In this document: in pieces, positions 1-62,614 of the stretch
How positions within the stretch are numbered: the stretch's first letter is position 1
Layout of the letters: each line of letters opens with the position of its first letter
Assembly: GCA_963767035.1 (NCBI GenBank)
Contig: CAVYBW010000001.1
Coordinates: 2,438,547 to 2,502,546, forward strand
Source: an uncultured Chloroflexia bacterium
GTDB taxonomy: Bacteria > Chloroflexota > Chloroflexia > Chloroflexales > Herpetosiphonaceae
Reading direction: 5' to 3'
Length of the DNA stretch: 64,000 nt
Program-made: the position numbers and the translations under genes
The notes under the pieces: model-generated
What the model saw: only the letters and a program-made list of their open reading frames with translations
Databases searched by the model: none
Told to the model about the DNA's origin: nothing

Positions 1-1795
1 GCAACCATTACGCGAGCCAGCATCGCTTCTGGCGATACAACGCTGCACTTATTTGCCTCCAATAACAACAATCCTGGGCCGAATCTTACGCTGATCGAAA
101 CCGATTTGAGCGATGGAGTGCATACTAATGGCTCATCGGTGATTAGCTCAGCGCCAATTACGACCACTGGCAGCTACTTTATCAAGCTTGAGGGTGGCAC
201 GCCAACCACGCTGATTGAACCTTACGATTTATATGTGCGGGTCTTGAGCACAAACGTTAGTGAGCAAGAACCAAACGACCTCGTACCACAAAGCATTACA
301 ACCCAAGCCAGCGTCAGTGGTATCCTCTCAGCAACCAATGATCTTGATCGCTACCAATTTAGCGTAAATGCTGGCGACACGATTTTTGCAACTGTTGATT
401 TTGACCCTGAGCGCGATGGCACAACCTGGAATGGCTTGCTAAGGATTGGGTTGGTCGACACGCTGTATTTCGAAGTCAATGATGGCAACAGTGTTTCGCC
501 CAATGCCGAAGCCAATGCGATGACGGTTCAGCAAGCAGGAACCTACGAAATTCAGATTGGTTCGGCGGTTGATGTTGGCTCACAAGCCAGCTATCTGGCC
601 CAAGTGCTGATTCTGCCAGCAGCAACTCAGGCCAACTGCCAAACCGTGACGAGCCAAACAGCCGCCCAAGCAATTGGCCCCAATCCCGGAATCATCCAAT
701 CAAGCATCACGGTTGAACAAGCTGCCAACATTGGCGATCTTGATGTGCTGCTTGATTTAGAGCATAGCCTCATGACCGATTTGGATGTAACCTTGACCGC
801 GCCTGATGGCAATGTGGTTGCTCTCTTCACGGATATTGGCAGCGCCCAGCGCCCTAACGTCAATCTCGTGATCGATCAGCAAGCAGCCTTGCCGCTTGGC
901 AGCTATAACAATTTGAGTGGCATTCATTATGCTCCCGAATTTAATAGTAGCCTTGATTGGTTTGCAGGCCAACAAGCCCAGGGCCAATGGACATTGACAA
1001 TCTATGATGATAGCGACCACAATGGCGGCAGCTTAAATAGTTGGGGCTTGCGGATTTGTGGCATGCCTGCGCCTGCTGATTGTCCAACTGGGATGGCGCG
1101 TAGTGTCCTGTATAGCAGTCAATTTGAGGCTGATAATGGTGGGTTTACGTCACCTGACCTGTTTGAGCAAGAATGGGTTTGGGGTAACCGCAACAGCCCA
1201 CCGATTGTCGGCGCTCATAGCGGTGAAAACAGCTGGAACACCAACTTTAACCGGCAATTATCCCAATAGCGCGCGAATGCAATTGGACTCACCTACTATC
1301 AATTTTACAAATGTTAGTGGACCAATTTATGCACGTTGGTATCAACGCTATCAACTTGGTTCTAGCATCAATGATTTTTATCTGGTAACCGCCCATAGCC
1401 CTCAACGAGTATCAACCTTATTTGAGCATCGCAGCGCAGCTATGCGCATGGAAGTTGGCAACCCAGCTCTAACGCTTGAGCAAAGCACGGGCTGGGGCTT
1501 GCAACAGCATGATCTCAGCTATTTGGCAGGCAGTATGATCTATCGGTTGCGGTGGGATTTTGGCAGCGATTCCCATGATACCTTTGCTGGCATCGCGATT
1601 GATGATGTGGAAATTACTGGCTGTATTGATGCTGGTTTGATTACCCCAACCATCACACCAACCTCAAGCACCACCCCAACGCCAAGCGTTACGCCAATAG
1701 TAACGCCAAGCATCACGCCAACGCCAAGTGCGACACCAACGATTGATCCAGCACGCTTCTACATCCATCTACCACTCGTCATAATCAATCAATAG
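1..1795 (+). CDS. Secreted multidomain protein, paralog A (5' partial). Domains: PPC (pre-peptidase C-terminal) domains, a proprotein-convertase P-domain, a C-terminal beta-sandwich domain and a Pro/Thr linker. Reading frame is interrupted near 1249.
   Basis: The frame is open from nt 1. The 'WTLTIYDDSDHNGGSLNSWGLRICG' stretch is a P-domain signature. The '[25 protein letters not shown]' stretch is a PPC-like fold. ORF 1058..1795 continues the alignment with paralog B (GPIYARWYQRYQ vs [12 protein letters not shown]) after a 1-nt shift in 'aactttaacc'. The C-terminus has a TPTPS linker. Confidence 0.6.
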
Positions 1796-1884
1796 CATCG
1801 ATGGCCCAGTGCTCCAGCCGGGGGATTCTCGGCTGGAGCAGAATCCCCCAAATTCACCCTTGTGTTTAGCTGTTAAGTCAGCCT

Positions 1885-4178
1885 ATGCTAGCCCAATCCC
1901 ACCTTCATCATTCCCTCAGCAAAAGCCTTGGTTTAGGAGGTTTGCATGCGTCTACGGATTGGGTTTATCGGCCTCAGATCGCCTTGATTGGGTTAACGGG
2001 CAGTTTTCGCGCTTTCAAGCCCGTGCAAGCAGCGCCAGCACAACCAGCCAGTACATCCAACCAAGCCAACGCTCCGCAAGGTGCAGCCCGGATCAAAGAG
2101 CAGGAGAGCAACAACACGCCAGCAACTGCGAACCAAATCATTGGTCAGTCGGGAATTGTGCGTGGCTATATTACAGCCAATGATAGTGATTTCTTTGCAA
2201 TTCCACTCAGCAGTGGTCAACGCTTAGCTGCTGGAACCATGACTTCAGCCTCAGTTGGCACCGCAGATAGTATTTTAACGCTCTACCATCCTGATGGCAC
2301 AACCGTTGTAGAGTTCGATAACGATGATGGAGGTTTTGGCTCAACGGCATCAGTGATCAGTTCGGCCATTATCACGAATACTGGCACCTATTATCTTAAG
2401 CTCACAGCCAATAACACCACCAATAAAATTTATTACTACGATCTCTACCTGCGGGTATTGACAGCGCCCAACGCCTGAGCAGAGAGCCCAATAACCCAGC
2501 TCAACTGCTGCCGGCCAGCGGCATTGTCAGCGGGGTGGTTTCAACAACTGCGGATCTTGATATCTTTCAAGTAAGCGTGAATGCTGGCGATACGATTTTT
2601 GCGACGCTCGATATGGACCCAGAACGCGATGGCATAAGCTGGAATGGCCGACTTGGCATTGGCAATTTTAATGGCGCCCCCCTGATCGTGAATGATACTA
2701 ATGCCGTTTCGCCTAATGCTGAATTCTTCCCTATGACCGTGAAAGAAGCTGGTAACTATATTATTCGGGTTGATAGCACTGTGGCAGTAAACAACGGCAG
2801 CTATATACTACAAGTGCAAATTATCCCTGCCGAGGCTCAGATCAACTGCCAAACCTATATGAGCACCGATATTAATCAGACCATTCCGGGTGGCCCCGGC
2901 ATGATTACATCCACCCTAACAATCCCCAATACTGGGTTGATTGAAGATTTGGATGTGATTGTTCAGCTGGATCACACGTTTATTCCTGACCTTGACACCC
3001 TCTTAACCGCCCCTGATGGCAATAGTATTGCCTTATTCACTGATGTTGGGGTCTCAACTGTTGCCCCAGCAACCATGAATGTGGTTATCGATGATGAAGC
3101 CGCAATTCCACTCTTATCAGGGATAACTGTTTCTGGCACGGTCTCACTACCAGAACTTTATCGTCTGAGTTGGTTCGATGGACAACGCAGCCAAGGCAAT
3201 TGGACACTCACCCTGTATGACGATGCTTCAGGCGATGGTGGCACATTAAAAAATTGGGGCCTGCGGGTTTGTGCCGCCCCACCACCAGTTGATTGCCCCG
3301 ATGGTTCAACCGTTACCACAATCTATAGCAGCGATTTCGAATCAAGCAATGGCGGCTTTACCCATGCTGGCACAAATGATTCATGGCAATATGGCCAACC
3401 AAATTTTGCGCCAATTGTTGGAAGCTATAGTGGTCTCAATAGCTGGAAAACCAATCTGACTGGGCCTTATTCCGCGTCAATGAGCGCCAATTTAACCTCA
3501 CCAGCAATCGATCTGAGCGGTGTGGTTGGCCCAATTCAAGTCCAATGGCAACAGCGCTATCAGTTGGATACCGCGGTGAACGATAACTATTCAGTCAGTG
3601 TGCTCGGCAATACAACCCAAACCCTTTTTGATCACCGCGACGGAATTATGCGCGAAACGGTCGGTAATCCAGTGGTCACAATTCAACAAAGTACCGGCTG
3701 GAGCCGTCAACTGCACACTATTAATGATTTTGTCGGTCAATCAATTAATCTCCAATTTCACCTTGATAGTGATGCAGCAATTCAATTAGCAGGGGTAGCA
3801 ATTGATAATGTTCAGGTTACTGGTTGTCTTTTGAATCCAACCGCAACCGCAACCGCAACTGCAACTGCAACCAACACGCCAACTGCGACCGCAACCGCAA
3901 CCAACACGCCAACCACGACCAATACACCGATTGTCAGCGATACCCCAACCAACACGCCAACTGCGACCGCAACCGCAACCAATACGCCAACAATTACGGT
4001 TACACCGACCAATACTAATACGCCAACAATTACGGCGACACCCAGCAATACGCCAACCAATACCAATACACCAACGATCACAATCACACCAAGCCATACC
4101 CCAACGGCTACGCCAAGCGTAACCCCGGGGCCAACCCTGATTCCGGTCTATCTGCCGTGGGTTGGAAAAGATGCTTAA
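1885..4178 (+). CDS. Secreted multidomain protein, paralog B. Domain order: PPC, PPC, P-domain, beta-sandwich domain, long Thr/Pro/Ala linker. Frameshift near 2465, possibly a second near 1980. The start may be ATG 1946 behind RBS 'taggagg'.
   Basis: ORF 1885..2478 ends in '[12 protein letters not shown]'. The other frame continues with '[51 protein letters not shown]', which is the paralog A motif. '[25 protein letters not shown]' is the P-domain. The TATATNTPT repeats at 3830-4110 form the linker. Confidence 0.6.
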
Positions 4179-4198
4179 TCGATAACGTTCAGTGTTTG

Positions 4199-4231
4199 AT
4201 AGCCCGTGGCTGAGCCACGGGCTATTTTTTG
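4199..4231 (+). terminator. Rho-independent terminator after paralog B
   Basis: Perfect hairpin 'agcccgtggc tga gccacgggct' followed by 'attttttg'. Confidence 0.7.
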
Positions 4232-4403
4232 CCAACGCATGAGGTTGTGAAGATTTGATGTAGCCTTGGCTAAACGCTGAATGAGCAAGTTAAGTGCTTG
4301 CTCGTATTTCTCTAAACCACCATTTAGCTTACATTAGCCTGCGTTTTAGCTAAATATTGCTACAATACAAGCAGCAAGATAAACGCTCAGCTATGGAGTC
4401 GTT

Positions 4404-5510
4404 ATGACCAATACAAAACGAACCGTCGGTTTCGGCGGATTGATCATTGCCGCATTGGCGCTCTCAGGAATTGGTGGTGGTTTAGTCGGTGGCGTGGCAG
4501 GCTATCGCTTGGCCCAAGTTGATCAAACGGCGACTGCGGTTGTGGTCACTCCAACCAGTACCAATCAACAAACAATCGACAATCTCACCGCCCAACCGGT
4601 TGTTGCCAATAGCAATGATGCAGTCGTTCAAACTGTTGCCAATGCCTCGCCAGCAGTGGTCAAAATCATTAGCACGGTTGCCGGTGGCCAGGCCAGTGGC
4701 TCAGGCGCAATCATCAATCAAGATGGCTATATCATCACCAATAATCACGTTGTCGAAGGCCAAAACCGCCTGCAAGTTATTTATTCCGATGGCACGAGCC
4801 ATAACGCCGAGCTAATCGGCACCGATGCCTTTTCGGATATTGCAGTGATTCGGGTGCTCGATGCGGTGCCAGCCACAATTTCCTTGGGCAATTCGGATGA
4901 GCTACAGCCAGGCGAAACTGTGGTAGCGATTGGTAGCCCGCTTGGGAAGTTCCAAAATAGCGTTACGGTTGGGGTGGTGAGCGCACTCGACCGCACAATC
5001 GATCGTATGGAAGGCTTGATTCAAACCGATGCCGCGATTAACCATGGCAATAGTGGCGGCCCGTTGATTAATCTCAAAGGCGAAATTGTTGGCATCAATA
5101 CCTTAGTTGTGCGTGGCGATGTTGGCAGTTTGGATGAAGCTCAAGGCTTGGGCTTTGCCGTACCCTCGAATATTGTGCGTGAAGTGAGCGATACCTTGAT
5201 TGCCAATGGTCAGGTCGTGCGGCCATACATGGGCATTAGCTACGAATTACTTTCGCCCGAAACCGCCGAACTGGGCATTCCCAGCGATAAAGGTGCGTTT
5301 GTTACCAATGTTGATGAAGGAACACCAGCCCGCCGGGCAGGCATTAGCCGTGGCGATATTATTCTCTCAGTCAATGGCGAGCAAATTACCCAACGCCACT
5401 CGTTGCAACGCCTGTTGTTACAATATAAGCCCGGCGATACGGTTACGGTCGCGATTGAACGCAACGGCCAGCAACAAGAGGTGCAAATTACTCTGACTGA
5501 ACGCCCATAA
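4404..5510 (+). CDS. htrA: HtrA/DegP-family serine protease with C-terminal PDZ domain and N-terminal membrane anchor
   Basis: Catalytic triad motifs 'TNNHVV', 'DIAVIRV' and 'GNSGGPLIN'. The PDZ region is 'RRAGISRGDIILSVNGEQI'. The N-terminus has a TM segment. Confidence 0.85.
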   Translation: MTNTKRTVGFGGLIIAALALSGIGGGLVGGVAGYRLAQVDQTATAVVVTPTSTNQQTIDNLTAQPVVANSNDAVVQTVANASPAVVKIISTVAGGQASGSGAIINQDGYIITNNHVVEGQNRLQVIYSDGTSHNAELIGTDAFSDIAVIRVLDAVPATISLGNSDELQPGETVVAIGSPLGKFQNSVTVGVVSALDRTIDRMEGLIQTDAAINHGNSGGPLINLKGEIVGINTLVVRGDVGSLDEAQGLGFAVPSNIVREVSDTLIANGQVVRPYMGISYELLSPETAELGIPSDKGAFVTNVDEGTPARRAGISRGDIILSVNGEQITQRHSLQRLLLQYKPGDTVTVAIERNGQQQEVQITLTERP

Positions 5511-41451: not shown

Positions 41452-42378
41452 TTACCAAGTTGCTGGTGGATCGCTGGCTGGAAAACTGGTATCAACAGCT
41501 TTATCTTCGGTCTCTAGTGATTCTTCTTTATTGGTTTTGGCTTCAACCTTCATTTGATCACTGTATTGTGGGTCGTTCACAGCGGGCTTTTCGCCAACGG
41601 CATTTGACTTAACCGCAGTGCGTTCTTCCTCATCCTCGATTACTTTGCGGAAGCGCTCGAGATCTTCGGCAATCGCTTTTTGCGGATCATTGCCAAACAA
41701 CTTAGCTACGGCTTCGCCAACTGCACCTGCTGGTGGTTGATAATCGAGCTTAACCCGAACCTCGGTTTGCTCATCGCCCAATGCAGTAAATTCAACCCGA
41801 CCTTGATTGGGCAAGCTCGAATTTGGCAACGAACGCCAAGCGATATATTCATTCAATTTGGCATCGGCAATTTCAGCATCCCACGAAATGCTCAGGCCTA
41901 GCGGTGCTTTAGCTTCCCAGTGGCTGGTGCCATTTTGAAACATTTTGACGCTGTTGAGGTAGTGCATAAATTTGGGCAAGTTTTCGAAGTTGCCCCAGAA
42001 GCGGAATACCTCGGCAACTGGCTGTTCAACCGTCACCGTATGTTCGACGCTGATCGCTTTCGCTTGGTCAACGCCTGCTTGATCAGCATTGGTGTGGTTG
42101 GTAGGAATCGGAATCCGTGGCGTTGTTGGCGCGGATGGTTTGCTCCACGTCGATTCAGTGCTAGTTTCAGCGGTATTGATATTGAGTGCGCTATAAGCTG
42201 GGCAATGGCCAGTTAAGCCACGCCACAAGAGCGGTGCGCCCCCAGCAATTGCTGCCAAACTCACTGGCAAATGGCGACGCATAATACCAAACGCAACCAG
42301 TGCGCTGCCGCTTGCTACCGAAAGCAAGCGCTCAGTTTGATGCACATTTTTCTCAGTAGCCATACAGAACTCCTTCAA
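41452..42378 (-). CDS. SRPBCC (cyclase/dehydrase-fold) protein with N-terminal YgaP-like DUF2892 membrane segment and acidic C-terminal tail
   Basis: 'LLWRGLTGHCPAYSALNI' is the DUF2892 motif. The central domain has a START/Bet v1-like pattern. Confidence 0.55.
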   Translation of the reverse strand: MKEFCMATEKNVHQTERLLSVASGSALVAFGIMRRHLPVSLAAIAGGAPLLWRGLTGHCPAYSALNINTAETSTESTWSKPSAPTTPRIPIPTNHTNADQAGVDQAKAISVEHTVTVEQPVAEVFRFWGNFENLPKFMHYLNSVKMFQNGTSHWEAKAPLGLSISWDAEIADAKLNEYIAWRSLPNSSLPNQGRVEFTALGDEQTEVRVKLDYQPPAGAVGEAVAKLFGNDPQKAIAEDLERFRKVIEDEEERTAVKSNAVGEKPAVNDPQYSDQMKVEAKTNKEESLETEDKAVDTSFPASDPPATW

Positions 42379-42489
42379 CTAGGCTAATGCAAACTACTGA
42401 GTACTATCGCAAGTTACGTACCACAAAAAATGCGCTCGGAGGTTGCTAGGGTAAAAAAGGACCGAATTTAAAAACTAACCTTACTTAAG

Positions 42490-43341
42490 TTATAGAATAT
42501 TAAGAATTGTTTGGTTTGATGTACGCTGTGCAATCAGCCTTGTTATATAATCTAATTCCATTCTTGCATCAGCTTGAAGTCCAAGGCTTCTCGCAATTCC
42601 ATTAGCATCAGTGCTTAAGCGAGTCGATAGTTTCAACTTTAGTTCATTATCCAAATCTTTCTCTAGCTGATATGCATGAATATGAGTAGAGTCAGAAATA
42701 TTAACTGTTGGATGAATGTGAGAAAAGTTGAATTCACCTTGCATATAGTTTAAGAATCTATCTTGGATTACTAAAACTAGTTTTTTGTTGATATATTCAA
42801 ATGTTTGAACTTTGTGATGCATTTGCATCATGATTGTTTTAGCAGTCATTTTCCAGTTAATACCATAGGGCTTTAATAAATCAGATTCACCAAAATCAAC
42901 AGCCAGACCTAAAGATTTCAGCAATAACTGGCGAGTAGGCCAGACAGTTCCAGTTGTATCAAGTGTTTGTAATTCAATCCCAACAAAGTCGTGTACAACT
43001 TTATCTTTCATTGAAACTAAGAAATAATCAACATTACCTCCAGGAATTGAAATTTCAGGAATTAAATGTAATTCATTTCCAGGTTCATGTAAGGTTAGTA
43101 AATGAAGGCAATCAATAAATATTTGACGACGTTGAGTTAGTCGCGTAGGGCAAATAATAATTGGTTCATTTAATTTTCCGCTAAGTACAGTACATGTTCC
43201 TATTGATATATTAGGATTACTTTTACGTACTTTATAGCATTTGCGATTTAAGAATACGCATTGCTGTTGATCAACAATATCAATCCAGTTTAATCGAATA
43301 TTTTCTGTGGAATGACCATAAAGTTCAACTATATTATTCAT
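42490..43341 (-). CDS. Putative Type II restriction endonuclease, partner of the adjacent methyltransferase
   Basis: No family motif recognised. Low GC, a 4-nt start/stop overlap with the MTase, and the size (283 aa) are typical of REases. Possible PD-(D/E)xK-like 'DYFLV...VGIELQ'. Confidence 0.5.
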   Translation of the reverse strand: MNNIVELYGHSTENIRLNWIDIVDQQQCVFLNRKCYKVRKSNPNISIGTCTVLSGKLNEPIIICPTRLTQRRQIFIDCLHLLTLHEPGNELHLIPEISIPGGNVDYFLVSMKDKVVHDFVGIELQTLDTTGTVWPTRQLLLKSLGLAVDFGESDLLKPYGINWKMTAKTIMMQMHHKVQTFEYINKKLVLVIQDRFLNYMQGEFNFSHIHPTVNISDSTHIHAYQLEKDLDNELKLKLSTRLSTDANGIARSLGLQADARMELDYITRLIAQRTSNQTILNIL

Positions 43342-44429
43342 TTTATTGAATCAATCCTTTCTTGAGTCAAATTCAAATATTCAGGTGATAAATCAATGCC
43401 AATAGATTTACGCTTAAGCGTTTTAGCAACAATCAGTGTAGTGCCTGTCCCACAGAATGGATCTAGAATTATCCCATTTGGTGGACAGGTAGCAAGAATT
43501 GGGATACGACATAGATCTGTTGGGTAAGCAGCAAAATGTGTATTACGTTTTTGAGTATCTTCAGGAAGAATATCCCATACATCTGTTGGCTTGCTCCCAT
43601 TGGGATGGTAACGTAAAAAATAGAATCCTCTATCACGTAACTCTTTAGCTCTACCTGAAATCTTTTCTTTATCAGAATGAGTTGTTCGTTGTTGTCCGCG
43701 AATCACCATTCTAAAGTCAGCAATCTCACCTGATGCAATACTAGCAAGCATCTGTTGTAGCGATTGAAAAGCGATTACTTTCTCTGCATCTGTCAAAGTA
43801 GTCGATAGTTCAATTTGACGTTTGTAACGAATACCTGAAACTCCTGTAGCAGATACAATTACTCCATTAACAACCTTTGAGGAACGTGGTTTAGTACGAA
43901 TAGAATCTAAATCATAATAATATTTAGGTTGTTTGACGAAATGAAATAAATATTCATGTACATTACCTAGCCTATCCCTTGCTGTATCCATACCACTTTT
44001 AACTTTATTCCAAATGATATCATTTCGTAGAATCCATTGATTTTCATCGATCAGTGTGAGAGCAATCCTCCAAGGAATACCAAGTAAATTCTTATTATGA
44101 TATGAATCGCCCATATTAAGCCAAAAAGAACCTTTAGATTTCAATACTCTTTTACATTCACTAAATACATTCATTAAATTTTCAATAAATTCCTGATATG
44201 TGTCTTCCATACCAATTCCATCATTTTCATATTGTCTCTTCTGCCAGTATGGAGGGGATGTCATAATCATATCAATAGATTCGCTAGGTAGGTTCTTAAG
44301 AATATAAAATGCATCTCCAAGTAATAAAATTGGGTTTCTATTATCATTATCTAAATATTGAGATAAAATATTTTTTTCAGTATATATATTTAATTTTGAT
44401 CTACCATAAACTGTAGCCATAAGAAACAC
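43338..44429 (-). CDS. Beta-class DNA methyltransferase (probably N4-cytosine, SPPY type)
   Basis: 'IMTSPPYW' is motif IV and 'LDPFCGTGTTLIVA' is motif I. Low GC. Confidence 0.8.
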   Translation of the reverse strand: MFLMATVYGRSKLNIYTEKNILSQYLDNDNRNPILLLGDAFYILKNLPSESIDMIMTSPPYWQKRQYENDGIGMEDTYQEFIENLMNVFSECKRVLKSKGSFWLNMGDSYHNKNLLGIPWRIALTLIDENQWILRNDIIWNKVKSGMDTARDRLGNVHEYLFHFVKQPKYYYDLDSIRTKPRSSKVVNGVIVSATGVSGIRYKRQIELSTTLTDAEKVIAFQSLQQMLASIASGEIADFRMVIRGQQRTTHSDKEKISGRAKELRDRGFYFLRYHPNGSKPTDVWDILPEDTQKRNTHFAAYPTDLCRIPILATCPPNGIILDPFCGTGTTLIVAKTLKRKSIGIDLSPEYLNLTQERIDSIK

Positions 44430-44494
44430 CTCTAAATTAAGTGATGCAACTATATTAATGTTGCATCACTGTACATGATATTCTATAAGATTAA

Positions 44495-44995
44495 TTAATC
44501 AATTTGGCTCAATTGATTATCTTGCCATTTGATATGCCCGCGCAGCAGCAATGAGGCCGAGCGTAACTTGTAGATCATATCGTTGATAAAATTGCGCATA
44601 ATTCGATAGCCAATTGCAGTGTTTGTTTCGCAGAGCGCCGAAAGCTCAGGCCCGTTGATCACTAATAACGTGGTTGGGTTCATACTGGCAACCGCTGTGG
44701 CCGAGCGACTGCCGCCGCCAAGCATGGCAATTTCGCCAAAAGCTTGACCTTCGTAGGCAGTATTAATTGTTGATAAGCGACTTTGGCCGTCGGAGCCACG
44801 GGTTTGAACTTGAATTTCAACCGCGCCATCGTGAACAACATACAAATCATCGCCATCACTATCCTCTCGGAAGATAATTTGGCCTTTTTTGGCCTTGGCA
44901 ATTTTGCAAAGCTGGGCAATCTGGCTAAGCTCAAGATCGCTTAGCCCAGCAAAAATATCGACGCGACGTAACACTGCAATGACACTATTGTTCAT
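44495..44995 (-). CDS. Cyclic-nucleotide-binding (cNMP/CAP-effector) domain protein, no DNA-binding domain
   Basis: 'FGEIAMLGGGSRSATAVA' is the cNMP-binding signature. The start overlaps the upstream HK stop by 11 nt. Confidence 0.65.
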   Translation of the reverse strand: MNNSVIAVLRRVDIFAGLSDLELSQIAQLCKIAKAKKGQIIFREDSDGDDLYVVHDGAVEIQVQTRGSDGQSRLSTINTAYEGQAFGEIAMLGGGSRSATAVASMNPTTLLVINGPELSALCETNTAIGYRIMRNFINDMIYKLRSASLLLRGHIKWQDNQLSQID

Positions 44996-47252
44996 CGTTC
45001 CTCCGGCCTGGTTGGGGCGAGAATAAAAAGGCATCAAGATCGAGGGTGGTTTGGGTGGTGTTGGTTTCGTGTTTCTCAGGGATAAAGCGCGGGATGGCGA
45101 TGCAGAAACGTGCGCCGCCGCTCGGAGCGCTATCAACCCAAATCCGCCCATTGTGCAGTGTAATAATTTCGCGACATAAATACAAGCCCAAACCTAAGCC
45201 TTCGGTGCTTGATCCGGTTCGGCGAATCCCCGGCACTCTGTAGTAGCGTTCGAATAAACGTTCGCGTTGGCCTTGGGGAATCCCAGGCCCTTGATCGTCA
45301 ACCTGAACATAGCCAAAATGTTCATCACTAAACACTTGCACCCAAATTTGGGTTTGCTGTGGGCTATAACGAATCGCGTTGGTCAAAAAGTTGGTAGCAA
45401 CTTGGCGCAATTTCAGCGAATCGCCATAGACTACGCTGGAGTTGAGTTGCTCAAAGTGCAGGGTATGATGGTTGGCAGTGTGGCGGGCATGCATCACCAC
45501 CGAATCGAGCAAAATGCCCAAATCAACAGCGTCAAGCTGGATTGTGAAACGCTCAGCATCAATTCGCGATACATCAAGCAGATTATCGACCAGTTGCACC
45601 ATAATATTAACTTGCTGGCTCAAGGTGATAAAGCCGCGCAAATCACGGCCTTCAGTCGCTTGCTTCAATTCACGCCGCAGCAGCAAATCGCTATAGCCTT
45701 TGATTGCCGCCAGTGGCGAGCGCAATTCGTGGGCTGCAACCGCCAAAAATTCATCCTTGGCTTCTTCCAAACGCCGTTGCTCGGTAATATCGCGGAATAC
45801 GATCACCGCCCCATCAAACGAGGTATCACCACTATCAATTAATACTGAACGGCGCAAGGGTGCACCGCTAAAACTCAATACAACATCTTGATCTTGGCTC
45901 CCAGGCACGATTAAGCGATAATCGCGAAAAACCTCGCCAGCCAAGGCACGGGCAAACGGCAGCATGTCGGCTTCGACAAAACTACCATCAAGATAGCGCG
46001 CCCCCGATTCGCTGCTGGTAGCAAGGGTTGGCAAAATTGAAATTTCAACTAAGCCGGCAGCAGTTTCGTTGGCCAGAATTAACTCGCCGATACCATTACA
46101 AATTGCCACGCCATCAGCAATCGATTCGATCACCGTGCCAAGCCGTTGGCGTTCGCGTTGGCTTTCTTCATATAAGCGGGTATTGGCAATCGCGATGCCA
46201 ATTTGCGAACCCATCGAGACCAACGAAGGCCAATCGATATTATTGGATAGCGTTTGGTAATTGCCATACAACACCAAAACACCCACGATCGTGCCACCCG
46301 CTAAGAGTGGCATCGCCGCCCGCCCCATAATATCCTCGCCCAAATCGCTGGTACTGATAACTGGGCGCAATGTTGGCTGGCCATAGTAGACCACATCTTC
46401 TAAGACGCTATTGGCTTGGCTCGAAGCAAGCAGCAGCGCTTCGCGCGGTGGCAGTTGGTGTTGGGCAGCTAAAGTGATGCTACGGCCACCAGGCGAGGCT
46501 AAACAAATTGCCCCACCATTGGCGCTGACCACCTCAATTACCACCAACAAAGCCACATTTAAAAGGTCGGGCAAATCGGATGATGTGCTAATGGCCGTAA
46601 CGACCGCATCGAGCGCAGCCAAACGCCGGCGTTGACCACGGGCATCGGCCTGTTGGCGCACCAACTGCAACAACGAGCCTAGCTGATCAAGGGTTGGTTG
46701 CAACCAACCGGCTGAAGTGGCATTCAGGCTTGGTTTGCTGCTAAAAAACTCAATCACCCCGCTAGGTCGGCCATTGCCGCCAAGCGTAAAGCCCGTTACT
46801 TGAAATGAAATTGGCAGGAGCGCCCGCCAACGATTGAAAAGCGCCTCGCGCCGCCGACCCAAAGCCCCAAACATGCCGCGATACTCATCAGCATTGCGAG
46901 CGGTGATCGCATGGCCTTCGCTAACGACGCGTCCAGCCAGCGCCTCGCCGCTGCGCACTTGCAAAGCACTTAATGCTTCTCTATCGTCGGCGCTAAAATC
47001 CTCGTGGCTGCCATTGTTGAAGTGGCTTAGCAGGTAACGATGTGAAGTAGAACTATAAAACCACACTGCAATGGCATCAACAGCTAAAACTTGGCGCAAT
47101 TGGGCACTGGCTGCGGTAATCAAGCGAGCCGGATCATCAACATTCATAATATCGTTCATGATCCGTGAGAGTGCGAGAAGCCGCGTTTGAATCCGTTTGC
47201 TGCGCAACGTTTGGAGCTGTTGCTGGCCGCGTTGCCGTGATCGTTCTGTCAT
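44985..47252 (-). CDS. Cytoplasmic multi-GAF/PAS sensor histidine kinase
   Basis: 'AAHELRSPLAAIKGY' is the H-box and 'DDQGPGIP...GLGLGLYLCREI' is HATPase_c. Confidence 0.8.
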   Translation of the reverse strand: MTERSRQRGQQQLQTLRSKRIQTRLLALSRIMNDIMNVDDPARLITAASAQLRQVLAVDAIAVWFYSSTSHRYLLSHFNNGSHEDFSADDREALSALQVRSGEALAGRVVSEGHAITARNADEYRGMFGALGRRREALFNRWRALLPISFQVTGFTLGGNGRPSGVIEFFSSKPSLNATSAGWLQPTLDQLGSLLQLVRQQADARGQRRRLAALDAVVTAISTSSDLPDLLNVALLVVIEVVSANGGAICLASPGGRSITLAAQHQLPPREALLLASSQANSVLEDVVYYGQPTLRPVISTSDLGEDIMGRAAMPLLAGGTIVGVLVLYGNYQTLSNNIDWPSLVSMGSQIGIAIANTRLYEESQRERQRLGTVIESIADGVAICNGIGELILANETAAGLVEISILPTLATSSESGARYLDGSFVEADMLPFARALAGEVFRDYRLIVPGSQDQDVVLSFSGAPLRRSVLIDSGDTSFDGAVIVFRDITEQRRLEEAKDEFLAVAAHELRSPLAAIKGYSDLLLRRELKQATEGRDLRGFITLSQQVNIMVQLVDNLLDVSRIDAERFTIQLDAVDLGILLDSVVMHARHTANHHTLHFEQLNSSVVYGDSLKLRQVATNFLTNAIRYSPQQTQIWVQVFSDEHFGYVQVDDQGPGIPQGQRERLFERYYRVPGIRRTGSSTEGLGLGLYLCREIITLHNGRIWVDSAPSGGARFCIAIPRFIPEKHETNTTQTTLDLDAFLFSPQPGRRNDEQ

Positions 47253-48678: not shown

Positions 48679-49006
48679 TCTCACCTCCTAGCCTGCTCTC
48701 CCTTCAAGGATAGGTTTTAACAAAGGGCTAGTGGATGGTCATATTAATAATCCCCTCACCCCCTATCCCCCGCTCCCACTGAACGCGGGCGAGGGCGAAC
48801 CGTGCCTCCATTTCCCATGGATCTGCGAAAACCACCATATGAAGCCCCAGCCCCGAGCCACGGGAGCGTGGCTGGGGTCAGGGCATCTTAACCGACTACC
48901 CTTGAACGCGGGCGAGGGGGAACCGTGCCTCCATTTCCCATGGATCTGCGAAAACCACCATATGAAGCCCCAGCCCTGTGGCGCGGGGCTGGGGGTGAGG
49001 GAATGC
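48679..49006. repeat. Family-A repeat cluster containing a ~110-bp direct duplication
   Basis: 'gaacgcgggcgaggg(c/g)gaaccgtgcctccatttcccatggatctgcgaaaaccaccatatgaagccccagccc' occurs at 48781-48868 and again at 48904-48991. The cluster ends in 'ggggctgggggtgagggaatgc'. Confidence 0.65.
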
Positions 49007-49230
49007 AAAAGAAATTTTTGGTTCTTCTGCCACGTCTTGGGGCTAAATACAACAGAGAACAGATGGGATTAGGCTCTGAGTTGTTGGCTTTGATTCTTGA
49101 GGTTACGAACAAATGACCGATAGCCATAAGCCAATAGCCTCAAGTCATTCGTGGTTAATGACCCTTGTAATCGTTTTGCTTTAACATACACTCTCAATAC
49201 AGCATTTGATTCAGTTAAATGGAGCAACGC

Positions 49231-57274: not shown

Positions 57275-59860
<2,586 letters not shown>

Positions 59861-60035: not shown

Positions 60036-62614
60036 ATGTCTCGGCACTATTATGCCCGCGGGGCGATGTTGTTAGCCCTGCTAACAATGATTGGTGGTCT
60101 ATTGACCACTCAGAATGCCAAACCAACCGCCGCTGCTGCCAGTTGTGTTGTCACCTATCGCGTGCCCAATCAATGGGGCAATGGCTTCTTAGGCGATGTC
60201 AATATTCAAAATAATGGCGCTGCGATCAATAGCTGGACAGTTGGCTGGAGCTTTGCTGGCAATCAGCAAATTACCAACCTCTGGAATGGGGTTGTGACCC
60301 AAACTGGCCAAAACGTCAGTGTCAGCAACGCTGGCTGGAACGGTTTCATCGGCAGCGGTGGTGCTGTCAATGTTGGTTTCCAAGGAACCTACAGCGGAAG
60401 CAACGCCATCCCAACCGTGTTTACCTTGAATGGTGTGGTTTGTGGCGAAAACACGCCAACGCCAACCACTGGCCCAACCAACACCACGACCCCACCAACC
60501 GCAACCACGCGGCCAACCAATACCGTGGTTGTGCCAACCAACACGGCTGTGCCGCCAACCGCGACAACTCGGCCAACCAACACGGCTGTGCCGCCAACCG
60601 CGACGACTCGGCCAACCAACACGGCTGTACCGCCAACCGCAACCAATGGCCCAACCAGCACGCCACGACCAACGAGTATCCCAACGGTTGTGCCACCAAC
60701 CAGCACTCCAACCCTGCCAGGCGATGATACCTATGATCAACGCTTCTTGGAGCTGTATGCTGAATTGAAGAATCCAGCTAATGGTTACTTTAGCTCAGAA
60801 GGCGTGCCGTATCACTCAATCGAAACCTTGATTGTTGAAGCCCCTGATTATGGCCACGAAACCACATCCGAAGCCTATAGCTACTGGTTGTGGCTCGAAG
60901 CCATGTATGGCGAAGCAACTGGCAACTGGCAACCATTGGCCGATGCTTGGCGCAATATGGAAATGTACATCATTCCAACCAGCCAAGATCAACCATCGGT
61001 TGGGGCTTACAATGCCAATAGCCCAGCCACCTATGCTGGCGAATGGGAATTACCAAGCCAATATCCATCAGCCTTGCAAACCAACGTTTCAGTTGGCCAA
61101 GACCCAATTGCCGCTGAATTGCGCTCGGCCTATGGCACCAGCGATGTGTATGGCATGCACTGGTTGCTCGACGTTGATAACTGGTATGGCTATGGCCGCC
61201 GTGGCGATGGCACCAGCAAACCATCATATATCAATACCTTCCAACGGGGCGCACAAGAATCAGTTTGGGAAACCGTACCACACCCATCTTGGGAAAACTT
61301 CAACAATGGTGGCCCAAATGGCTTCTTGAATCTGTTCACTGGCGATGCTAGCTACGCTCGCCAATGGCGCTACACCAACGCCCCCGATGCCGATGCCCGC
61401 GCTGTCCAAGCGATCTATTGGGCAAAAGTGTGGGCCGACGAACAAGGTGGCTCACCGATCGTCAATGGCTTGGTAAGCAAGGCCGCTAAGATGGGCGACT
61501 ACTTGCGCTATGCCTTCTTCGACAAGTACTTCAAGCAAATTGGCTGTACTTCAACCTCGTGCCCAGCAGGCTCAGGCTACAGTAGCTCCCACTATCTGTT
61601 GTCGTGGTACTACGCTTGGGGCGGTTCGATCGGCAGTGGCGGCGCATGGTCATGGCGCATTGGCAGTAGCCACAATCACTTCGGCTACCAAAACCCAATG
61701 GCAGCCTGGATTTTGGGCAGCCAATCGGCTTTCAAGCCAGCCTCAACCAATGGTGCTCGAGACTGGAACACCAGTTTGACTCGCCAAATTGAGTTCTACA
61801 CCTGGTTGCAATCAAGCGAAGGCGCAATCGCCGGTGGCGCTACCAATAGCTGGAATGGCCGCTACGAAGCAGCTCCAGCTGGTACCAGCACCTTCTACAA
61901 TATGGCCTACGACGAAAAACCTGTGTACCACGACCCAGCAAGCAACACATGGTTTGGTTTCCAAGCTTGGTCAATGGAACGGGTCGCTGAATATTATTAC
62001 GCATCAGGCGATGTCAAAGCCAAAAACGTGCTCGACAAGTGGGTAACATGGGCTTTGGCCAACACCACCTTGACCAGCAATGGCAGCTATGAAATTCCAT
62101 CAACCTTGGCTTGGAGCGGCCAACCAGTTACCTGGAACGCCAGCAACCCAGCCACCAACACCAACTTGCACGTCACGGTCGTCGATAAAACCCAAGACGT
62201 GGGTGTTGCCGCCGCTTATGCCAAAACCTTGATGTACTACAGCGCCGCTACCAAGCGCTATGGCACCCAACACGTTGCTTCACAAACCATCGCCAAAGAA
62301 TTGATCGACCGGATGTGGACCCAGTATCGCGATGATAAGGGTGTTGCAAACCCCGAAACCCGCAAAGACTACAACCGCTTCGACGATTCAGTCTATGTTC
62401 CAAACGGCTGGACTGGCACCATGGCCAATGGTGATCCAATCAACAATTCATCAACGTTCTTGAGCATTCGCACCAAGTACGAAGATGATCCAGCCTTCCC
62501 AGCAGTGCAAGCCTACCTCAATGGTGGCCCTGCGCCAACCTTCACCTACCACCGCTTCTGGCTCAAGCCGATATCGCAATGGCTTACGCCGAATACGATC
62601 GCTTGTTCCAATAA
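60036..62614 (+). CDS. CBM2-linker-GH48 exocellulase (reducing-end cellobiohydrolase). C-terminal frameshift near 62556.
   Basis: N-terminal CBM2 '[23 protein letters not shown]'. The GH48 block '[37 protein letters not shown]' is present. After 'HRFW' the +1 frame gives the conserved end '[17 protein letters not shown]', with one G missing in 'tggg'. Confidence 0.8.

Follow-up and report, generated by a model that had tools for sequence, protein, structure and literature searches.

A putative Type II restriction-modification system with a divergent NotI-family nuclease in a variable chromosomal interval of Herpetosiphon

NotI, a restriction endonuclease from Nocardia otitidis-caviarum (383 amino acids (aa); PDB 3BVQ/3C25; Pfam PF12183), recognises the 8-bp sequence GCGGCCGC. 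It contains an iron-Cys4 structural motif, and a glutamine replaces the lysine of its catalytic motif (PMC4081073). Defence systems have also been described in integron cassettes, with sedentary chromosomal integrons regarded as anti-phage “biobanks” (bioRxiv 10.1101/2024.07.02.601686). Here we describe a pair of genes, encoding a DNA methyltransferase (MTase) and a 283-aa restriction endonuclease (REase) of the NotI family, in a 64-kb stretch of the genome of an uncultured Chloroflexia bacterium (assembly GCA_963767035.1, contig CAVYBW010000001.1, positions 2,438,547 to 2,502,546, forward strand), which we will henceforth refer to as the window. We demonstrate the content and order of the genes, the family membership of the nuclease (by sequence and predicted fold), the foreign composition of the segment that carries them and its absence from five sister genomes. 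We read the locus as an ordinary, recently and horizontally acquired two-gene Type II restriction-modification (R-M) system, probably of Type IIP, and give this reading a probability of roughly 0.85. Its features are as follows (window coordinates).

42452..44491, no strand: foreign segment with low guanine-cytosine (GC) content (the island), delimited by the GC contrast and by the end of nucleotide homology to five sister genomes
43338..44420, minus strand: beta-class N4/N6 DNA methyltransferase, 360 aa, identified by Pfam PF01555, PADLOC MTase_II and motifs
42490..43341, minus strand: NotI-family PD-(D/E)XK restriction endonuclease, 283 aa, identified by Pfam, PADLOC, a PDB profile match and the predicted fold
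Sites in the REase: Cys4 residues C28, C35, C50 and C64; active site D105 and E123-L-Q125; conserved K177
43338..43341, minus strand: ATGA overlap of the MTase stop and REase start (translational coupling), read from the sequence
44427..44432, minus strand: putative Shine-Dalgarno-like GAGGTG, 6 nt 5' of the MTase ATG, found by inspection of the sequence

The nuclease, its methyltransferase and their relatives

The 283-aa protein matched the Pfam NotI family (PF12183) over residues 51-200 with a score of 28.4 bits (E-value 1.3e-6), above the gathering threshold of 22 bits, and also matched the PADLOC REase_II model (E 5.4e-11). A word-indexed search of a 5.8-billion-protein collection returned 4,696 homologues at E <= 0.001, the best of which were mostly exactly 283 aa long and about 60% identical; several carry the NCBI name “NotI family restriction endonuclease”. 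No protein in this collection was more than 65% identical to the window REase, and an exhaustive search over 50%-identity representatives gave 474 clusters of homologues. When a profile of 31 diverse members was compared with PDB, NotI (3bvq/3c25) was the single match (E 2e-5). The significant part of that match was the N-terminal cysteine-rich region (NotI residues 13-87), while in a second, sub-threshold stretch reported by HMMER the family motif IExQT (IELQT in the window) was aligned with LEIQT of NotI, which includes E182-I-Q184.

Conservation and predicted structure point the same way. Across an alignment of 56 diverse homologues the four cysteines (C28, C35, C50, C64), D105, E123, Q125 and K177 were each at least 90% conserved, D105 being invariant. 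An AlphaFold model built from this alignment reached a mean predicted local distance difference test score (pLDDT) of 92.4, compared with 35.7 from a shallow alignment of 13 sequences, and NotI was the sole structural match of the predicted fold. Every NotI-family feature that can be looked for in a sequence or a predicted fold was thus present in the protein or its model, and we conclude that the nuclease belongs, as a divergent member, to the described NotI family and does not found a new one.

The MTase matched Pfam PF01555 (N6_N4_Mtase) from end to end (179 bits) and the PADLOC MTase_II model (E 1.9e-74), and had 6,215 homologues with identity of up to 71%. We place its start at an ATG; the mechanically called open reading frame (ORF) begins at an alternative GTG at 44429. 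Motif IV (SPPY, residues 55-58) lies in the N-terminal part and motif I (DPFCGTGTT, residues 320-328) in the C-terminal part, and the order is therefore that of the beta class, i.e., motif IV, target-recognition region, motif I. Relatives in PDB included TTHA0409, N4-cytosine MTases, CcrM, M.PvuII and M.RsrI (E 5e-20 to 4e-13). The motif order and the FxGxG motif I are common to the window enzyme and the M.PvuII, M.RsrI and TTHA0409 type, with the likeness limited to the catalytic and S-adenosylmethionine-binding motifs; since the target-recognition region is not common to them, specificity cannot be read across from these relatives. N4-cytosine enzymes carry SPP[YF], with which SPPY agrees, and SPPY is the form usual in N4-cytosine methyltransferases. 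Judged from this motif, the product is probably N4-methylcytosine (m4C). The nearest NCBIfam models were adenine-specific, with scores far under their cut-offs.

To place the pair among its relatives we gathered related loci from metagenomes (80), viral contigs in IMG/VR (5) and an exact protein look-up (4). Of the 85 loci that extend far enough upstream to hold one, 84 have an MTase homologue directly 5' of the REase homologue, and the 4-nt overlap of stop and start codons recurred in 60 out of 69. The pair was found in Acidobacteria, cyanobacteria and Gammaproteobacteria, on small Acinetobacter plasmids, on IncFII plasmids of Klebsiella, Enterobacter and Serratia, and on the five IMG/VR contigs. 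Annotated public examples (Blastocatellia HLG14275.1, Microcoleus MCC3407088.1, WP_176538638.1/WP_176538639.1 on the Acinetobacter plasmid pBspH9, and the Klebsiella IncFII plasmids) match the window pair in length, gene order and the overlap of 4 nt (or 8 nt), with identities of 52-65% for the REase and 58-71% for the MTase. Compared with these pairs, the window copy diverges most within the clade, especially in its nuclease, is far more AT-rich than most, and lies between chromosomal core genes rather than on a plasmid or in an integron. We found no sign of control by a C protein: the island holds no small helix-turn-helix controller ORF and the 69 loci have no conserved upstream palindrome. 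On the Acinetobacter sp. TR3 plasmid pTR3_4 (5818-9694 of that locus) genes for a DGQHR-domain protein and a hypothetical protein come after the pair in the same orientation, possibly forming a small defence cluster.

By analogy with NotI, the REase would act as a homodimer. Its N-terminal Cys4 site would bind a structural metal, as that of NotI binds iron, and its D105/E123-x-Q125 site would bind Mg2+ and cut unmethylated sites in incoming DNA. The MTase would methylate a short recognition sequence in the host DNA, the same one that the nuclease targets, and translation of the REase would be coupled to that of the upstream MTase through the ATGA overlap.

Several points weigh against this reading. 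Neither single-sequence phmmer nor a profile of 13 REase sequences matched anything among PDB sequences, no NCBIfam model matched the REase, and identity to NotI is only 15-18% with a length gap of 100 residues. The m4C assignment is drawn from one motif, SPPY. We infer, too, that the enzymes are active and that the nuclease cuts as a dimer and leaves staggered ends, as well as any recognition sequence and the route by which the pair was inserted. In addition, the window REase deviates at 16 of the 138 positions (11.6%) that are invariant in 12 clade-mates, which themselves deviate at 0-2.

The empty NCBIfam and single-sequence PDB searches and the low identity to NotI are also what would be expected if the nuclease belonged to an undescribed restriction-enzyme family, as the preliminary description of this DNA had suggested after seeing no conserved domain in the 283-aa ORF. 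Both suggestions fail against the PF12183 score above its threshold, the REase_II match, the thousands of homologues, the NotI-family names in public records and a fold match unique to NotI, and we regard an undescribed family as extremely improbable. What the low identity and the shorter protein do mean is that the specificity of NotI is not transferable. The window REase is unlikely to share GCGGCCGC.

The deviations at conserved positions raise a different alternative, namely a decaying system in which the MTase is functional, the endonuclease is attenuated or dead and the locus is close to an orphan methylase, a common fate of acquired R-M pairs. The excess is specific to the nuclease, as the MTase deviates at 5 of 161 such positions (3.1%), within the range of its clade-mates (0-8), and several of the private changes in the REase (F8Y, K33R, Y54S, I93L, E136T, R139L, M161I, L171M, V172M, H183Y, L209I, C252S, E258D, L270I, L279I and F280L) are non-conservative. 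For this reason the nuclease may be attenuated, inactive or altered in specificity, which is a further point against a working system. However, the window REase is an outgroup to a tight clade of 12 sequences (60% vs 73% identity), and part of the excess is therefore expected from this position alone. The ORF is also full length (283 aa, like most relatives), the ATGA junction is intact, the four cysteines, D105, E123, Q125 and K177 are kept along with every other position conserved in 90% or more of the 56 sequences, and the un-ameliorated composition of the genes (see below) argues for a short time since arrival. On balance we consider decay unlikely and keep to the reading of a two-gene Type II R-M system.

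A foreign island in a Herpetosiphon insertion hotspot

The 2,040-bp island has a GC content of 0.328, against 0.512 in the remainder of the 64-kb window (z = -10 relative to 2,040-bp windows taken at 500-bp steps outside the island, the lowest of which reaches 0.463), and there is no second low-GC island of this kind in the window. GC at third codon positions (GC3) is 0.20-0.21 in both island genes and 0.47-0.54 in four neighbouring genes; the island DNA is therefore not yet adapted to the composition of the host. Given a GC3 of 0.20 without drift toward the host value, we conclude that the pair came recently from an AT-rich donor. The ORF list of the island contains the two R-M genes only, with no transposase, no integrase and no third ORF. 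The island is bounded by two core genes.

44495..45151, minus strand: cyclic-nucleotide-binding protein (PF00027), core flank and hotspot boundary
41452..42378, minus strand: YgaP-like transmembrane plus SRPBCC/polyketide-cyclase-type protein (PF11127, PF03364), core flank and hotspot boundary

We compared this locus with that of five sister species, i.e., NSE202, H. giganteus, H. llansteffanensis, H. geysericola and H. aurantiacus. The cyclic-nucleotide-binding protein shares 96-98% identity with its counterparts in these five species, the flanking DNA is 85-90% identical to all five sisters and the SRPBCC-type gene is syntenic in all five; the host is a Herpetosiphon. In every case homology to the sisters ends at the stop codon of the cyclic-nucleotide-binding gene (44492-44496) and restarts 50-70 bp upstream of the next gene (42425-42451), leaving only 38 nt of foreign DNA after the REase stop codon. 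None of the five sister genomes has the R-M pair at this locus. Instead, the boundaries enclose 290 bp, 1.26, 3.0, 3.4 or 4.3 kb of DNA unrelated to the island, at the following positions of the sister loci (equivalents of 42452-44491).

L001: 10513-13528
L002: 10510-14770
L003: 10510-13946
L004: 10513-11770
L005: 10509-10801

In three sisters this interval carries paired, tandem homologues of SUKH-3 immunity proteins (PF14433; E 2.8e-6 and 2.2e-4) together with small membrane proteins. In H. aurantiacus the 290-bp interval holds only the remnant of a His/Glu-rich tail, which suggests that a SUKH-3-like gene has been deleted there. Since the sisters hold other DNA and no nuclease more than 65% identical exists in the collection searched, the interval is a hypervariable hotspot for cargo, with the R-M pair as a recent gain private to this genome.

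These comparisons uphold most of what the preliminary description had proposed from the letters of the sequence: a low-GC island of about 2 kb (33-36% against about 50%), a Type II R-M cassette with an SPPY/DPFCGTGTT beta-class MTase whose stop overlaps the 283-aa ORF by ATGA and is followed by the coupled nuclease, and horizontal acquisition. It had proposed comparing sister genomes, in all five of which the 2-kb segment proved to be missing. It had also named two observations that would speak against it, an island of native GC with the same boundaries in all relatives and a match of the 283-aa ORF to a non-nuclease family, and we saw neither.

A 9-nt tandem repeat (approximately CCTTCGTGT) marks the hotspot boundary in L005 (10636-10797) and the right boundary in L001, L003 and L004. 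Read on the other strand, it codes for the C-terminal tail of the SUKH-3-like protein, a stretch rich in His and Glu (HEGHEGHE...). In the window and in H. giganteus its place at the boundary is taken by a terminator-like GC hairpin and T-run, degenerate in the window.

Repeats, a hairpin and integron-borne relatives

Two short sequence elements lie near the ends of the island.

42490..42500, no strand: left arm of an 11-bp inverted repeat (TTATAGAATAT on the plus strand), formed by the REase stop codon and last codons
44478..44488, no strand: right arm of the repeat (ATATTCTATAA on the plus strand), 6 nt beyond the stop of the upstream gene
44440..44470, minus strand: hairpin with a perfect 11-bp stem and a 9-nt loop, between the upstream stop (44495) and the MTase start

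The preliminary description had taken the complementary 11-bp repeats as the bounds of the cassette. The arms do exist, the right one at 44478-44488 rather than 44476-44486, but they are at most putative functional bounds: both lie inside the foreign DNA, and one of them belongs to the REase reading frame. The island has neither a transposase nor an integrase, no target duplication is seen, and nothing equivalent to the repeat is shared among 55 related cassettes. Nor is there another perfect copy of the motif in the window. We shuffled the island 1,000 times by dinucleotides; 0.2% of the shuffled sequences contained a perfect inverted repeat of 11 bp or longer whose arms both lay no more than 70 nt from the ends, a figure to be read with the fact that the 70-nt limit was set after the repeat had been seen. 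Two further perfect 11-bp inverted pairs lie inside the island, with chance-like placement. The right arm overlaps a consensus-level -10 hexamer; the corresponding promoter-like site (TTGATT-16-TATCAT, 44502-44475) is at chance level, with 9 such sites found against 11.3 expected. The repeat may be what remains of cassette ends, or it may have arisen by chance.

The hairpin is likewise real, although it spans 44440-44470 and not 44440-44473 as first described. It begins 24 nt past the stop of the upstream gene and ends 19 nt ahead of the MTase start. A local hairpin with an 11-bp stem occurred in 3.4% of the shuffles. The 80-nt leader that contains it folds with -18.2 kcal/mol (z = -2.7), and no good T-run follows the hairpin. 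It may shield the cassette from read-through or sit in its 5' leader. We rejected the idea that the hairpin is an operator or another conserved regulatory element, as the 69 related loci have no common palindrome 5' of the MTase (making it specific to this copy) and Rfam gave no match. As an attC site it was rejected too, since at 31 nt it is too short and its AAC/GTT boxes stand beside the loop and not at the outer ends.

Some of the relatives are integron cassettes. In about 14 of the 85 related loci (roughly one in six) the REase is followed by a canonical integron attC site, compared with 9 of 249 random control positions. In these relatives the R'' sequence GCATAAC begins 6-34 nt beyond the REase stop and is followed by an imperfect hairpin of 56-141 nt and by R' (GTTRRRY), while GTTATGC, the R' end of the preceding attC, lies about 50-120 nt upstream of the MTase. 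Locus L043 contains an array of attC-type sites (500-5215). The attC-bearing loci include the following.

L062: attC at 4859-4917
L039: attC at 4879-4939
L043: attC at 4871-4933
L030: attC at 3092-3232
L060: attC at 2100-2171
L035: attC at 2202-2287

The repeats of the window could be functional or vestigial ends of a mobile unit, either relics of attC cores or the ends of a non-autonomous transposable element. This would fit the rarity of such a terminal repeat in the shuffles, the textbook cassettes among the relatives with their array in L043, and the rough placement of the window arms (..TTATAG / CTATAA..) where attC cores would lie, with TTAT/ATAA in common. Integron defence cassettes are, like the window pair, compact two-gene units of about 2 kb, and promoter-proximal. 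Against it, the same scan that detects attC in the 14 relatives finds none after the window REase, beyond whose stop only those 38 nt are foreign; the resemblance to an attC core amounts to 4 nt; no target-site duplication or direct repeat is seen around the arms; the left arm is coding; and the one low shuffle frequency is post hoc, for a motif found perfectly nowhere else in the window. Neighbouring cassettes are lacking as well. The island has no integron integrase beside the pair, and the flanks, where domain scans covered the two adjoining genes, are Herpetosiphon core genes. We therefore think mobile-unit ends improbable, and retain horizontal acquisition of the pair into a chromosomal hotspot without attributing it to these repeats.

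A permissive, fold-based attC scan gave about one match per kb of window and was too unspecific to discriminate. Runs of GTTGG/GGTTGC-rich short repeats at 3865-4005, 59301-59540 and 60472-60693, which were flagged by a permissive hairpin scan, are likely low-complexity sequence coding on the opposite strand for linkers rich in Pro, Thr and Asn. At 48731-49127, a segment of about 75 nt is directly duplicated within ORFs on both strands (peptide PLNAGEGEPCLHFPWICENHHMKPQP twice); this looks more like a repeated intergenic element than a gene.

Recognition-site leads and meaning of the locus

In the literature searched we found no published specificity for the 283-aa NotI-like clade, and looked for avoided sites in 87 non-redundant carrier loci (L008-L096; 454 kb) using maximal-order Markov expectations. 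The most depleted hexamer was CAGCTG, with a ratio of observed to expected counts (O/E) of 0.24 overall, 0.23 in the flanks alone and 0.18 in the cassettes, where the 64 palindromic hexamers had a mean O/E of 0.70 (standard deviation 0.14). Among the 65 carrier loci that reach 3 kb or more, 49 lack CAGCTG, where 23.9 would be expected to. In the window it occurs 16 times where 23 are expected, a mild deficit as would be expected if the R-M pair arrived recently. Several other palindromes are nearly as depleted and the comparison has no control set of cassette-free contigs; for these reasons CAGCTG is a lead and not a result, and as the recognition site of the clade we hold it to be a tentative proposal.

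Other candidates fared less well. The best plasmid match to the pair is in Acinetobacter sp. NEB 394, the source strain of BspHI (an NEB strain formerly named Bacillus species H), whose 9-kb plasmid pBspH9 (NZ_CP055291.1) carries a copy, genes HUK62_RS18830/18835, at 849-2814 with 55% identity; a PacBio methylome exists for this strain (PMC9122589). The BspHI site TCATGA was rejected, as carriers show no avoidance of it (O/E 0.70) and pBspH9 itself holds five TCATGA sites, for which reasons the pBspH9 pair is probably not BspHI itself. CGGCCG, the EagI site and core of GCGGCCGC, was also rejected (O/E 0.70, rank 36 of 64 in carriers, a count made on the hexamer and not on the 8-bp site), and its absence from the window is no signal, given that sister genomes without the cassette lack CGGCCG too. 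On enterobacterial plasmids many hexamers are missing, so that palindrome counts there discriminate little. The CCGCGG system of D. radiodurans was dismissed as an m4C parallel because its nuclease is of the GIY-YIG type, and neither a paper on m4C in Methylococcus nor the CAGCTG methylases of Salmonella had any link to the window system.

Herpetosiphon DNA is in general almost devoid of several GC-rich palindromes, with or without the cassette. CGGCCG occurs 0 times against 17.5 expected in the window and once against 30.7 in the sisters; the corresponding values are 0 against 7.5 and 0 against 9.9 for GGGCCC, and 0 against 4.6 and 0 against 10.6 for GGATCC. GGCGCC was observed 5 times against 31.8 expected, and CCGG has O/E values of 0.58 and 0.34. 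This scarcity probably reflects the many other restriction systems of the genus.

Taken together, these leads could be combined into a compact NotI-fold clade that targets CAGCTG with m4C protection and is partly spread by integrons, the window repeats being worn attC cores. We judge this combination doubtful at best. If true, it would describe an enzyme for the PvuII site with an unrelated fold, by analogy with NotI probably making a staggered cut, and a cassette captured at a chromosomal hotspot that is not an integron.

The 283-aa NotI-like clade is abundant: its copies number in the thousands and are found in different phyla, in plasmids and integrons and in a few viral contigs, and a single assignment of a recognition site would serve a large set of annotated genes. 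For the host, the locus documents a very recent horizontal gain of a defence system, in a hotspot whose conflict genes vary with the Herpetosiphon species: an R-M pair here and SUKH-3 immunity genes elsewhere.

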